Shown one piece after another: positions 16,044 through 21,337 of a stretch of DNA of 64,000 bases. Origin of the DNA: a virus (lineage: Duplodnaviria; Caudoviricetes); the IMG/VR virus record IMGVR_UViG_3300025936_000002, positions 1 to 64,000 of that record, one strand, 5' to 3'. Under the pieces are notes generated by a model. That model searched no databases. It had not been told where the DNA came from and saw only the letters and a program-made list of their open reading frames with translations. Made by a program: the position numbers and the translations under genes. The first letter of the stretch is position 1; every line of letters begins with the position of its first letter.

Positions 16044-16129
16044 AGCTTGGCTAGGATACAGCGAGCAGCGCGCTGCGACCAAACCTAGGACGAGGACTGT
16101 TTTAGGCCACAGGCGGATTATGGCACTGC

Positions 16130-16174
16130 ACGTTTCGTCTTGTCTCGCCTCGGATCGAATCGTATCGCATCGTT
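16130..16174 (-). repeat. Pentamer array 1 (NN-CGA units; candidate guide ncRNA)
   Basis: Plus strand acgtt tcgtc ttgtc tcgcc tcgga tcgaa tcgta tcgca tcgtt: 9 in-phase units, with more degenerate units to about 16195. Intergenic. Confidence 0.75.
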
Positions 16175-17712: not shown

Positions 17713-18108
17713 TCAGCGATCGCGATCGGCGAGATAGCTTTCGACCGTCGCGTAGCCCTGTTGAGCTGCAACGGCGGCATCGTCCGGGCGGCCGAGTACG
17801 ATGGCTTTCAGCTCGTGGCTCTGCGCGTATTTATATACGTTACACAGCATCTTGTGTGTCTTGACGTTTGTGAAGTCAACGCCATCTTCAACCCATTTCG
17901 TGTTGATTCCGACAGCAATAAGCCACCAATAGAAACCATCGCTATCGGGGTTCGGTTGGGACATGCGCTCGATCAACCCGTCTAGTTGGGCCAACTGCGT
18001 GCGGACTGCAGCGACGGTAGGTAGAGGGGAATCCTCGATGCGGCTCAATGCTGCAATCGTCTGCCGCACGGCGCTCAGCTCTCTTACGATGTCATTGTGA
18101 AAGGCCAT
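17713..18108 (-). CDS. Hypothetical protein
   Basis: Start moved to ATG 18108 (MAFHND); the track's upstream extension is pentamer array 2. Confidence 0.55.
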   Translation of the reverse strand: MAFHNDIVRELSAVRQTIAALSRIEDSPLPTVAAVRTQLAQLDGLIERMSQPNPDSDGFYWWLIAVGINTKWVEDGVDFTNVKTHKMLCNVYKYAQSHELKAIVLGRPDDAAVAAQQGYATVESYLADRDR

Positions 18109-18120
18109 TGTTTTCCAATC

Positions 18121-18200
18121 TCGCTTCGTTACGTATCGGTTAGCGACGTCTCGTCTCGTGGCGATTCGGTTAGAGTTGATTCGTCTCATCTCGAATCGGC
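18121..18200 (-). repeat. Pentamer array 2 (16 NN-CGA units; candidate guide ncRNA)
   Basis: Plus strand tcgct tcgtt acgta tcggt tagcg acgtc tcgtc tcgtg gcgat tcggt tagag ttgat tcgtc tcatc tcgaa tcggc; 13 nt downstream of the RAMP-like stop. Confidence 0.85.
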
Positions 18201-18213
18201 GACGGTAAAAAAT

Positions 18214-18798
18214 TTAGCTCATCTGGATGTTGATGAGCTTGAAGCGGCCGTAGAATCCGCCGTTGGCCGGGCGGAAGCGGCCGAGCCCTACGAAGGTGCC
18301 GGCATCCTCGAAGGCCTTGGCTAGCACGTCGCGATTGATGACCTCGTCCAAGACGTAGATCGTCGAGGTTGCACGCCACGGATTCAAAATCCGGGGCATG
18401 CAGCGCTTGACGCGGGTCCCGCCGGGCTTGCCGTTGGCGTCGAGGAACAGCCATTCACCCTCGAAATCGTCGAGGGTGGCCGGGCGCCATCCGTTCTTGT
18501 CGTTCGACTTGAACAGCGGAAGCTCGTCGGTGATCAGGATCCCCGACTTGAAGCGCTTGGTGTAGGTAGCATTGCGCTCGCCCGGGATCTTCCCGAGGTA
18601 GGACGACGCCGACTCGAGGCACTTCTTGAGCATCATCGGTGGAATGAACGGAGCGCCTGCGGCGTTGACGTGGATCCGTTGCCTCCACGTCCGCTTCTCG
18701 AGTTCGTCGGCGGTCTCCTTGCCCTCGCGCTGCGGATCGTAGAATCGCGATGGGCTATGTGGACTGATTCCCTCGATCGTCACATTGGCTGTCTTCAT
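18214..18798 (-). CDS. Stand-alone Cas7/RAMP-like protein
   Basis: N-terminal strand NVTIEGISP, PFIPPMMLKKCL helix, and C-terminal G-rich loop FVGLGRFRPANGGFYGRF followed by a final beta strand. This is the RAMP motif order. Confidence 0.72.
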   Translation of the reverse strand: MKTANVTIEGISPHSPSRFYDPQREGKETADELEKRTWRQRIHVNAAGAPFIPPMMLKKCLESASSYLGKIPGERNATYTKRFKSGILITDELPLFKSNDKNGWRPATLDDFEGEWLFLDANGKPGGTRVKRCMPRILNPWRATSTIYVLDEVINRDVLAKAFEDAGTFVGLGRFRPANGGFYGRFKLINIQMS

Positions 18799-18811: not shown

Positions 18812-18871
18812 TCGTTACAACTTGTATCGGCTTGGTTAGCTTCGTTACGTGTTGATTCGGCTCGTGTCGGG
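18812..18871 (-). repeat. Pentamer array 3 (12 NN-CGA units)
   Basis: Plus strand tcgtt acaac ttgta tcggc ttggt tagct tcgtt acgtg ttgat tcggc tcgtg tcggg; directly upstream of the RAMP-like RBS. Confidence 0.82.
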
Positions 18872-18891: not shown

Positions 18892-19395
18892 CTACTTCTC
18901 GCTGAGCGCTTCGAGGGTGGTTCCGAGTTCCAAACGTGAGTTGGCAACCTCGACGGCTCCACGGATCTTGCGTTCGGCCTTCGGCGTCGCGAGATGGTGG
19001 AGCGTTCCAACGACGGCAAGCTTGGTGTTGTACTCCACCTGCTCTGCCGGCTGCAAGGCATTGTAGTTCTTGACGCCGTAGACCAAGGCGGCGGCGGCTT
19101 TCTTGGTCTCGCGGCGGACGTGCTTGATCGTTCGATCTGCAACCGTAGGTACTGCAGCATCGGCGACGTGACGCCACCCTTGGTTGCGTTCGCGGACGAT
19201 CAAGATTTTGTGCTCCTTCAGGAGCACGTTCTTGACCGTCCGCATGTATTTGTACCATACAGCTCGTTGCGCTTTGGTGGCCTGATCGATCTGTTCATCG
19301 GTAATGAGGCCGCCTACGGGCACAGCTTTGATCAACTCGACGATGGAGTTGGTGTAGGCATGTCGATTTCCATGTATTAGCAGTTCTGTCGTCAT
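18892..19395 (-). CDS. Partner protein of the RAMP-like gene (helical, possible winged helix)
   Basis: 167-aa ORF flanked by arrays. KILIVRERNQGWR resembles a wing; the C-terminus is helical. Confidence 0.65.
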   Translation of the reverse strand: MTTELLIHGNRHAYTNSIVELIKAVPVGGLITDEQIDQATKAQRAVWYKYMRTVKNVLLKEHKILIVRERNQGWRHVADAAVPTVADRTIKHVRRETKKAAAALVYGVKNYNALQPAEQVEYNTKLAVVGTLHHLATPKAERKIRGAVEVANSRLELGTTLEALSEK

Positions 19396-19410: not shown

Positions 19411-19475
19411 TCGTTACGTTGTGGCTCGCCTCGTTTCGACACGCTTCGGGCCGCATCAGCTCATCTCGTGGCGAT
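19411..19475 (-). repeat. Pentamer array 4 (13 NN-CGA units)
   Basis: Plus strand tcgtt acgtt gtggc tcgcc tcgtt tcgac acgct tcggg ccgca tcagc tcatc tcgtg gcgat. Confidence 0.82.
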
Positions 19476-19489
19476 TAATGGTCTGCTAC

Positions 19490-19650
19490 TGCTGAAGCCT
19501 AGTGGATGTACTAACCAGATCGGCTACTAGGATGCTACTAGGATGCACCGTGGTTGGTCCAGCTGAGCGCTGCAGGAGTGCCCCTGGATCTAGTGGTGGC
19601 CCAGATCGCGTTTTCGACAGATTGGTTAATACATCCACTACGCATCAGCA
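19490..19650. repeat. 28-bp imperfect inverted repeat enclosing 105 nt
   Basis: 19490-19517 tgctgaagcctagtggatgtactaacca against the reverse complement of 19623-19650, tgctgatgcgtagtggatgtattaacca: 25/28 identical. Confidence 0.8.
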
Positions 19651-19655
19651 TCCTT

Positions 19656-19746
19656 TCGTTACGTTACGATGCGCCTCGCCTCGTATCGACTTGTTTCAAG
19701 TCGGCACAAATCGACTTGTTTTCGCTTCGATTCGCATCGGCTCGCT
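19656..19746 (-). repeat. Pentamer array 5 (18 NN-CGA units, one 1-nt phase slip)
   Basis: Plus strand tcgtt acgtt acgat gcgcc tcgcc tcgta tcgac ttgtt tcaag tcggc acaaa tcgac ttgtt t tcgct tcgat tcgca tcggc tcgct; 18 nt downstream of the recombinase stop. Confidence 0.85.
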
Positions 19747-19764
19747 AACCACAAACAACCTACG

Positions 19765-20736
19765 CTAGCGGTCTGACATTCGTCGATGGACCAGATCGGC
19801 CAACCAAGGTGGCGTCGAGTTGCGGACCCGGCCGCCGATCTCTCGGGCATCCATGTAGCCGCCGAGGGCGCCAAGCTTGCCCAAGCTGTGATGGGTGATC
19901 GCTGCGATCTCTTGGGGCTTTTGGCCCATCGCCTCGCGCCAGGTCACGAACGTATGGCGAAGCAGGTGGGGGTTGATGTGTCGGAGGCCGGCGAGCTTGG
20001 ATCGCTCTGAGAAGATCTTGGCAACTCCAGACATCGATAGCACTTTGTCAGTCGGCCTAAACGGGGTTGAACTGATGGCAGATCGCCGCAGAGGACAAAA
20101 CACCGGACCCGTTAGCTGCTGATATCGATCAAGAACAAGCAACCATTGGTTTAAGGCTACGAGCGAAATATCTGAGAGGGGTACCCAATCTGGATCTCTA
20201 CCTTTGAGCGGCACAAAGGCAGCTGGATAAGGCCAGGGGCCCAGAGCGTTCAGAGTTAGACCTTCGCTGCGTATCCCCAGCAGCGACATGCAGCGCATGC
20301 CGGTCTCGAGGCCGACGACGATCAGCGCAAAATCACGGATGCCAGCGTAGCTGTGATCGCAAGTATCGAGGAGCGCTCGGGCCGAAGCCTCGTCGAGGGC
20401 CAGCTGCGGTTTTCGATCTTTGGCCTTGGCTGTAGCCACCCGAGCGAAGTCCAGATCGTCGTTGTTCTCGTAGTGGGCAAACCATCGACTGGCGTAGCCA
20501 ACGGACTGCATCAGGCGATTGGCGCTCTGAGGTTTCATCCGCTTGAGGAGCTCGTCGTAGAACACGGCGGCGGCCTTGCGGGTCCAGTTGATCGGGTTGC
20601 TACCGACGAAGGCAATCCACTGATCCAGATCGCGGAGATAACGGCTCTTGGTCGTCTCGGCGATGTTGTGCGCCGAGATCACGATCTCGTGCAGCTTGCT
20701 TTGGGGGACGGGGGGGCTATTGCCAGGCGATTTCAT
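19765..20736 (-). CDS. Tyrosine recombinase/integrase
   Basis: RDFALIVVGLETGMR (Arg I), PHLLRHTF (HxxR), ITHHS (His) and GGY (Tyr); N-terminal SAM-like domain TKSRYLRDLDQW. Confidence 0.88.
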   Translation of the reverse strand: MKSPGNSPPVPQSKLHEIVISAHNIAETTKSRYLRDLDQWIAFVGSNPINWTRKAAAVFYDELLKRMKPQSANRLMQSVGYASRWFAHYENNDDLDFARVATAKAKDRKPQLALDEASARALLDTCDHSYAGIRDFALIVVGLETGMRCMSLLGIRSEGLTLNALGPWPYPAAFVPLKGRDPDWVPLSDISLVALNQWLLVLDRYQQLTGPVFCPLRRSAISSTPFRPTDKVLSMSGVAKIFSERSKLAGLRHINPHLLRHTFVTWREAMGQKPQEIAAITHHSLGKLGALGGYMDAREIGGRVRNSTPPWLADLVHRRMSDR

Positions 20737-21337
20737 CGAGCTTCTTCCGCGCGCGTTCGCCAAGCGGCAAAAATTCGATTGCCTCGGTCAGTAGTATCCA
20801 TGGTAGTTCCTTTGAGATCCGACCGGAATCAGGTCCGATGGTAGCTACCTCGTGAAGCGTATTAGCGCCATTCCATGACCAAATGCGCTTAGCGGCGGTC
20901 AAAATGGCCTCTTTGCCGTCTCGACGAAACAGGCGGCCATAGTGAATCCCAGCAGAGTAGGTACGGACTACAACCCATTCGCCGATGTCTTGTTCGATGC
21001 TTGAAATAGAAACCACGCTAGTCTCCTTATTTGTTAGATCCCCGTCCCCGGACCCGGACCCGTACCCGGACCCGGACCCGTCCCCGTCCCCGTCCCCGTA
21101 CCCGGACCCGGACCCGGACCCGTACCCGGACCCGGACCCGTCCCCGTCCCCGTCCCCGGACCCGTCCCCGTACAGAAAACCTGCAAGCGATGGCGCCCGC
21201 CAAAAGGCGGCCCCTTGATCTCCGGCCCCTTCGTACCAATCGGCGGTTGTTGCTCGTGCGTCCAGCGAGTCGACCGACTCAGCAAGCAATGCGGCTAAAC
21301 GCACAGTGGATTCATCCCCGCCATGATAGCAACCCAC
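20717..21337 (-). CDS. G/S/D/Y low-complexity linker + DUF6948-like domain (start uncertain)
   Basis: GDGSGSGYG repeats, then VVVRTYSAGIHYGRL...AKRIWSWNGANTLHEVA. Confidence 0.65.
   Translation of the reverse strand: MGCYHGGDESTVRLAALLAESVDSLDARATTADWYEGAGDQGAAFWRAPSLAGFLYGDGSGDGDGDGSGSGYGSGSGSGYGDGDGDGSGSGYGSGSGDGDLTNKETSVVSISSIEQDIGEWVVVRTYSAGIHYGRLFRRDGKEAILTAAKRIWSWNGANTLHEVATIGPDSGRISKELPWILLTEAIEFLPLGERARKKLDEIAWQ
21042..21172. repeat. Hexamer tandem repeat (cccgga/cccgtc/cccgta) with 60-bp higher-order duplication
   Basis: Lines 21061 and 21121 start with the same 38 nt; encodes alternating Gly-X. Confidence 0.9.

Follow-up and report, generated by a model that had tools for sequence, protein, structure and literature searches.

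VIPR (Viral Interference Programmable Repeat) is a virus-borne, CRISPR-related system of RNA-guided DNA silencing that was first described in 2026 (bioRxiv 10.64898/2026.04.26.720920, 10.64898/2026.04.26.720927). It consists of Vipr, a small stand-alone RAMP protein, the accessory protein Vap, and vrRNAs (10.64898/2026.04.26.720920, 10.64898/2026.04.26.720927). A vrRNA is composed of 9-16 pentamers, each made up of a hypervariable dinucleotide, NN, and a GGY triplet that is fixed (10.64898/2026.04.26.720920, 10.64898/2026.04.26.720927). Each Vipr protomer binds one unit and hides the GGY, and the NN pairs with DNA in such a way that every third base is skipped (10.64898/2026.04.26.720920, 10.64898/2026.04.26.720927, 10.64898/2026.10.15.759431). 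The natural targets are mostly coding sequences and the skipped base is usually the wobble base, by which synonymous escape is defeated (10.64898/2026.04.26.720920, 10.64898/2026.04.26.720927, 10.64898/2026.10.15.759431). According to the VIPR papers, real vrRNAs have no self-targets. The published vrRNAs carry an invariant structured 3' tail.

The skip-one rule holds in all VIPR systems tested so far, which are of the GGY type. Repeats of the NNNGG, YNNNG and NNNNG types are also listed, for which the rule was not tested (10.64898/2026.04.26.720920). The VIPR papers allow 'a related consensus' besides GGY, and non-canonical arrays with the composition GAC/NN, CAC/NN, WGT/NN, TGH/NN and NNNNG have been reported (10.64898/2026.10.21.760802; methods of 10.64898/2026.04.26.720920). 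CGA or CGN vrRNAs are not named in the texts of the VIPR papers, figures apart.

The DNA described here belongs to a temperate, uncultured 85-kb virus. It is a complete IMG/VR record of 85,269 bp with direct terminal repeats, and the window that was analyzed comprises its bases 1-64000. The virus is contained in assemblies of the JGI samples 3300005340 and 3300005341 and in the ENA and SRA entries SRR5452140, ERZ27264292 and ERZ27265651. Interspersed with five NN-CGA arrays, A to E, and on the same strand as these, are the genes for a Vipr homologue and a Vap-like winged-helix protein. Along the minus strand, the order is integrase, array E, array D, a 167-aa gene, array C, a 194-aa gene and array B, followed by a 131-aa gene, a DUF6915 gene, further genes, array A and a GDSL-like gene. 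Array B, which is array 2 of the initial annotation, is very probably (with a probability of about 0.85) the vrRNA gene of a VIPR system of a CG-first variant, carried by this temperate virus.

Array B, a candidate vrRNA, occupies positions 18121-18200 of the minus strand and contains 16 NN-CGA units in strict 5-base phase. From 18200 to 18121 it reads GCCGA TTCGA GATGA GACGA ATCAA CTCTA ACCGA ATCGC CACGA GACGA GACGT CGCTA ACCGA TACGT AACGA AGCGA. The triplet is CGA in 9 of the 16 units, CGT or CGC in 3, and degenerate in 4 (TGA, CAA, CTA and CTA). One extra degenerate unit is found on either side of the array, CCGTC at 18201-18205 and GATTG at 18116-18120, and the 3' end of the array is 13 nt upstream of the ATG at 18108. 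The 18 units that span the array contain 12 phased CG dinucleotides, a number reached by none of 20,000 shuffles (p<5e-5). Array B could be decaying, with 7 of its 16 units departing from CGA. The variable dinucleotides that the initial annotation had listed for it (GC TT GA GA AT CT AC AT CA GA GA CG AC TA AA AG) are exact, and so are the strings listed for its array 3 (18812-18871) and array 4 (19411-19475). A putative terminator-like hairpin or processing signal, identified by a consensus scan only, is located at 18216-18239 of the minus strand. It consists of 8 bp and a T6 run, overlaps the vipr stop codon and immediately precedes array B. Due to its position between the two, co-transcription of array B with vipr is not assured.

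All five NN-CGA arrays, B and four others, lie within 16.1-19.8 kb, and none is found elsewhere in the 85-kb virus. The phased CG content of each of the other four arrays is likewise above that of all 20,000 shuffles (p<5e-5 each). In the whole genome (85,269 bp), it is only at arrays A, B, D and E that windows of 12 units contain 8 or more phased CG. The four-unit CGA pattern CGANNCGANNCGANNCGA, with at most one mismatch allowed, is present 17 times on the minus strand and 0 times on the plus strand, compared to 5 and 1 occurrences, respectively, for the reversed control. Array A (16130-16174, minus strand) is positioned 2 kb downstream and, with its 9 units, is the cleanest CGA run. Array C (18812-18871, minus strand; array 3 of the initial annotation) has 12 units and ends in AACGA, directly after which come the ribosome-binding site GAGG and the vipr ATG at 18798. 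Array D (19411-19475, minus strand; array 4) has 13 units, the last two being AACGT AACGA; AAGG comes next, and then the ATG at 19395, where the 167-aa gene starts. Array E (19656-19746, minus strand) consists of two short arrays of about 6 and 7 units, which are split by a 7-bp hairpin (19697-19718). It starts directly past the integrase stop codon, and its E2 half terminates in AACGT AACGA AAGG. The hairpin gives array E an MFE z-score of -2.7. Arrays A-D are not predicted to fold stably, with z-scores that range from -0.17 to +0.51 (-0.17 for array B). The arrays are statistically real and unstructured, fitting a guide tract.

The 3' end is constant in every array and reads ...ACGTAACGA, or TGTAACGA in array C. 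Because of this constancy, the AA units at the very end, one or two in number, probably form a handle and are not part of the guide. In arrays C, D and E2, GAGG or AAGG comes directly after the constant end, and a start codon is 14-16 nt away. Several blocks, degenerate triplets included, are also common to the arrays: CGAATCAAC and GCTAACC are present in B and C, and ATCGCCACGAGA is present in B and D. Thus the NN strings of B, C and D are not freely variable. The initial annotation had taken every array to have a different string, as expected for distinct guides. The strings do differ, but those of B, C and D, having blocks in common, are not fully independent of each other.

Several other elements are found next to the arrays. 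The 3' end of array A overlaps a putative promoter at 16117-16146 (minus strand; GAGACA, an 18-nt spacer and TG-n-CATAAT, a consensus match only), which is positioned upstream of the GDSL-lipase-like gene. The 180-nt stretch between arrays E and D (19480-19655, minus strand) contains the direct repeat GCATCCTAGTA in two copies (19523-19546) and several TAG-rich words. A possible ORF of about 37 codons begins there right after the AAGG of array E2. The stretch is adjacent to the integrase, and attP or operators could be located in it. Further upstream, at 21041-21173 of the minus strand, there are 22 hexamers of the form NN-CGGG, in which NN is GA, TC or TA only; this is probably the 'array 1' of the initial annotation. 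It is not an array of the VIPR type. The hexamers are in frame with an ORF at 20717-21337, where they would encode a (Gly-Asp/Ser/Tyr)n linker N-terminal to a DUF6948 domain. The JGI gene call is a 195-aa product that spans the repeat. Alternatively, a strong AAGGAG ribosome-binding site with a GTG at 21016 would allow a short protein to be made, in which case the repeat would be its G-rich leader.

The 194-aa protein encoded at 18214-18798 of the minus strand is, judging from its homologs and its predicted structure, Vipr, a minimal RAMP protein of the Cas7-like kind with an RRM core, a glycine-rich loop and a thumb. The sequence of the G-loop is G-L-G-R-F-R-P and that of the thumb is R-C-M-P. 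A search with the single sequence gave a weak match to PDB entry 36pp, 'SUSP1 Vipr protein', with an E-value of 0.21, across the G-loop. A profile of 42 homologs matches the same entry with an E-value of 7.7e-9 over the C-terminal half, with the G-loops aligned. The AlphaFold model has a pLDDT of 92, and its Foldseek matches are Cas7, Csm3 and Cmr4 at E-values of about 1e-6. The model can be superimposed onto these backbones with VIA-align over its full length, with Z-scores of 11-12. The protein collection contains 342 homologs.

The 167-aa gene (18892-19395, minus strand) is the candidate vap. In its predicted structure (pLDDT of 89), a winged helix at the N-terminus is combined with a helical bundle. 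Homologs of it found by BLASTP adjoin vipr in 28 of 82 related loci. All of its matches to known families are weak: the MGMT DNA-binding domain at an E-value of 0.011 (PF01035 in 3 members), and the ScpB, MarR and GntR winged helices at E-values of about 0.1. The gene fits a Vap-type accessory protein, a label that is taken from its neighborhood and predicted fold.

Arrays with a 5-base period are found beside vipr homologs in 74 of the 88 related loci that were examined as DNA. These loci comprise 80 from IMG/VR, in which Vipr is 41-59% identical to that described here, loci L089 (73%) and L090 (70%), and six loci of a blind check. Period-5 arrays are present in 72 of the 82 loci of the main set, always on the gene strand, and by the same criterion in 2 of the 6 blind-check loci. 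The fixed triplet in the relatives is mostly GGC, which belongs to the published GGY type; CGC, CGT, GAC, GTC, GGT and GTT are found as well. The third base of the triplet is A in this virus, T in L089 and C in L090.

The first base of the triplet covaries with the thumb of Vipr. In an alignment of 54 Vipr homologs with a callable array triplet, residue 134 (Met here; it aligns with Arg138 of the SUSP1 thumb) is Phe in 40 of 40 proteins with G-first arrays and Tyr or Met in 14 of 14 proteins with C-first arrays. It is the single column of the alignment that separates the two groups completely. Residue 132 is mostly Arg in the C-first group and Lys in the G-first group. On the phylogeny, a FastTree tree without support values, C-first arrays have four or more separate origins. 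In the blind check, six additional homologs were picked solely by their residue 134. One protein with Met, two with Tyr and one with Cys were accompanied by C-first arrays (CGC or CAC), that is, four out of four; another locus with Met was uninformative. The sole control with Phe, L194, which has Arg at position 132, also has CGC/CAC arrays. Residues other than Phe at position 134 are therefore accompanied by C-first arrays in 18 of 18 cases, but Phe does not exclude a C-first array. Control L194 thus rules out residue 134 as the sole predictor of the first base, and the thumb motif as a whole is a better descriptor. The covariation supports a protein that would read the triplet and leave the NN free.

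The 3' ends differ in some of the relatives. In L090, L190 and L194, the arrays close with two to four constant AACGN units and then a GC hairpin. At L190:3600-4260 and L090:4680-5004, both with Met at the thumb position, the vrRNA genes are in tandem and very clean. Each such gene consists of an AT-rich promoter-like word, ACATTTTTAATC, 9-15 NN-CGC units, three AACGC units that are constant, and a GC hairpin. These tandem genes are good material for defining the ends of CG-first vrRNAs.

The arrays of relatives at 58-73% identity are wholly different from those of this virus. The invariance of NN strings among related genomes, which the initial annotation had named as speaking against its reading, thus does not apply. 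The copies in three other assemblies (L174-176) are of the same strain as this virus (99.96-100% identical) and therefore say nothing about the variability of NN. In another contig, from ERZ27265651, the Vipr of which is 98% identical, the intergenic gaps are 235 and 528 nt compared to 93 and 105 nt here (coordinates only), which suggests array turnover. The closest Vipr proteins in IMG/VR (58-59% identity) belong to records G001 and G002, from which loci L010 and L009, respectively, are derived. These genomes have about 1% of their length in common with this virus (tblastx), and the VIPR module is the only common part. The vipr-vap-array module thus passes between unrelated viruses.

Targets were searched for with NN?NN? 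patterns on both strands against a null of shuffled guides, as in the VIPR papers, where the usual criterion is an 80% NN match. In the 85-kb genome, with gaps of 0-3 nt and 200 shuffles each, no array gave a self-match above the shuffled controls. The best skip-one self-matches are 20/32 for array B, 16/24 for array C and 18/26 for array D, all within the shuffled range. The initial annotation had found no self-match by eye, and indeed there is none with an NN match of 80% or more. In a collection as large as IMG/VR, chance matches at the 80% criterion would number in the hundreds for guides of 12-13 units, so that only near-perfect matches could count there. IMG/VR was scanned with exact 8-unit NNx seeds from arrays B, C and D, followed by local extension. 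The numbers of seed matches are chance-like: 29 for units B1-8, 4 for B9-16, 1 for D1-8, 18 for D6-13, 22 for C1-8 and 9 for C5-12. None of the matches in IMG/VR could be extended, the best being 22/32 for B and 22/26 for C. One exact scan each of the metagenome and genome collections with the 11 units B1-11 gave one match in a metagenome and one in a Desulfovibrionaceae MAG, neither of which extended (25/34 and 26/34). The MAG match is in frame and reads AFEEILTIQDD; about 0.25 in-frame B1-11 matches are expected by chance, as estimated from amino-acid frequencies.

The C1-8 matches include a cluster that is antisense to a conserved hydrophobic 34-codon membrane ORF (MIPQWAPAFGWVLFCIACG...), e.g. 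at L159:2475-2576, with the skips on wobble bases. The ORF recurs in 14 viral contigs (L143-L164), many of them from the rhizosphere and one from sample 3300005340 of this virus, and exact matches to 8 units of array C are confined to it. The cluster was rejected as a target: units 9-13 are unmatched, the seeds match as often as chance predicts, and none of the other guides converges on these contigs.

The 188 guides of the relatives gave no signal against 0.75 Mb of loci and this genome with gaps of 0-3 nt, and neither did arrays A-D against 178 kb of whole records (the two closest Vipr carriers and two contigs with the C1-8 ORF) with any gap. An integrase-anchored search for competing elements found no relatives. 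Overall, no target for arrays A-D was found in the virus, in IMG/VR (exact 8-unit seeds of B, C and D), in the metagenome and genome collections (the exact 11-unit pattern of B) or in about 0.9 Mb of loci, and all matches were at chance level. The gap-model search called for by the initial annotation (gaps of 0-3 nt, its arrays 2-4) thus gave nothing above shuffled controls in the DNA searched. Its codon-style decoding of array 2 is arithmetically correct. As to its proposal of an NNx code that tolerates wobble changes, the code equals the published VIPR rule, but no target of arrays 2-4 was found that would show it at work; the skip-one rule is extended to the CGA variant by homology. The proposal is partly supported, in that the mechanism appears to be right in kind. 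The initial annotation had reached this non-contiguous code from the raw sequence, but it is the known VIPR mechanism, published in 2026, and hence no discovery.

By homology to the SUSP1 and Pseudomonas fulva systems, the arrays would be transcribed together with the genes. Each 5-nt unit would then be held by one Vipr protomer, with the CGA sequestered and the NN exposed, and the bound CG-first triplet would be matched by a thumb with R-C-M instead of K-C-F. The final one or two units (AACGT AACGA) are probably a constant handle, and no hairpin tail follows them. The NN of the resulting filament would pair with double-stranded NNxNNx DNA and silence the transcription of a competing mobile element. 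With x usually on a wobble base, synonymous mutations should give no escape.

The array may also be a VIPR guide that is read by a different rule, in which the third base of the triplet (A, T or C) varies and pairs, or the number of skipped bases is not one. If so, the codon-style decoding of the initial annotation is wrong. In favor of such a rule, that base varies among close relatives (A here, T in L089 and C in L090), NNNGG, YNNNG and NNNNG repeats exist for which the skip-one rule is untested (10.64898/2026.04.26.720920), and no skip-one target was found. However, gaps of 0, 2 and 3 nt likewise gave nothing above the shuffles in the DNA so tested, every tested system follows skip-one, and the fold is conserved here, as are the parts of the thumb and the bundle by which the one-base skip is determined. 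A different rule is accordingly unlikely, though less so than the other alternatives. One of these is that the arrays are mainly cis-acting leaders, on which Vipr filaments form in the polycistronic mRNA, immediately ahead of each ribosome-binding site, and control translation of vipr, vap and their neighbors, with DNA targeting being secondary or lost. Arrays C, D and E2 do pass without a break into GAGG or AAGG, with a start codon 14-16 nt from their ends. The arrays also lack a separate hairpin tail, and they have blocks in common and many degenerate units. On the other hand, in relatives with the same gene-array-gene layout the guides are clean and hairpin tails are present, no two arrays have the same NN string, and the published systems silence DNA in trans, all of which makes mainly cis-acting leaders improbable.

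The arrays resemble the sites of TRAP, the trp RNA-binding attenuation protein, which are GAG or UAG triplets 2-3 nt apart. In both cases, triplets separated by two spacer bases are found in leaders near ribosome-binding sites, and TRAP-like leader sites were in fact the first reading of this locus, which was abandoned when the link to Vipr was found. The similarity of period-5 triplets in 5' leaders is all that would favor recognition by an unrelated, TRAP-like protein ring that binds RNA, or an iteron array acting at the DNA level. The triplets here are CGA, CGT and CGC, not GAG or UAG, and the protein is a different one. Furthermore, the arrays track Vipr homologs in 74 of 88 loci and covary with a Vipr residue, all of them are on the gene strand, and none matches an Rfam family. 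The likeness to TRAP is a resemblance only, and an origin of this kind is hardly credible. A more speculative extension of the VIPR reading is itself unlikely: this virus might belong to a CG-first VIPR lineage in which the thumb was re-tuned several times independently for a different RNA triplet, and which here has lost the tails and fused its guides to the ribosome-binding sites of vipr, vap and one neighboring gene, such that the filaments both release guides and throttle their own translation. If true, such filament-based throttling would be a built-in dosage control that has not been described for VIPR.

Read as a vrRNA gene, array B and its surroundings extend what is known about VIPR. 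The locus adds a second triplet alphabet, being a clear CG-first (CGA) member. Together with its relatives, it shows repeated, joint changes of the held triplet and a short motif of the thumb. This link between triplet and thumb offers a way into the question of how Vipr recognizes its scaffold and possibly into the construction of orthogonal VIPR tools. The host range of the VIPR module is also widened, to the large virus described here, which has the module in common with otherwise unrelated viruses. The fusion of the guide tract to a ribosome-binding site hints at a coupling of guide production to expression of the system.

The backbone proteins of Class 1 CRISPR systems (Csm3, Cmr4, type VII Cas7 and type IV Csf2) have the fold that is predicted for the 194-aa protein, with an RRM, a G-loop and a thumb (Z-scores of 10-12), and form a filament on a guide RNA with periodically flipped bases, as the 194-aa protein would. 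However, repeats with spacers and other cas genes are absent here, the period is 5 nt and not 6 nt, and the guide is made of dinucleotides. TRF and repeat scans found no CRISPR repeat-spacer array (period of about 60-79 nt), the RAMP gene is the sole cas-like gene in the neighborhood, where PADLOC found nothing, and Rfam matched no ribozyme or known RNA family.

The type II VIPR systems of Escherichia phage SUSP1 and of a Pseudomonas fulva prophage (Vipr, Vap1 and vrRNAs) resemble this system in their organization. As in this virus, a stand-alone RAMP protein of about 20 kDa with a G-loop and a thumb is adjoined by an accessory gene of the DNA-binding type (here the candidate vap), the carrier is viral, and no self-target is found. 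Several arrays of pentamers, each consisting of a fixed triplet and NN, flank the genes on the same strand; they have 9-16 units in the published systems and 6-16 units here. The sequence similarity to SUSP1 Vipr is distant (an E-value of 0.21 for the single sequence and of 7.7e-9 for the profile, over the C-terminal half). Asp177 and Trp178 of the SUSP1 G-loop are replaced by Arg and Phe, and Arg138 of the thumb is replaced by Met. CGA, in some units CGT or CGC, takes the place of the canonical GGY triplet, and the arrays have no predicted pseudoknot or hairpin tail and abut ribosome-binding sites. The non-canonical VIPR arrays, too, are found as 5-nt arrays with a triplet other than GGY beside divergent Vipr-like folds. 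Since the VIPR papers allow non-canonical triplets, the CGA triplet marks this system as a variant and does not exclude it from VIPR.
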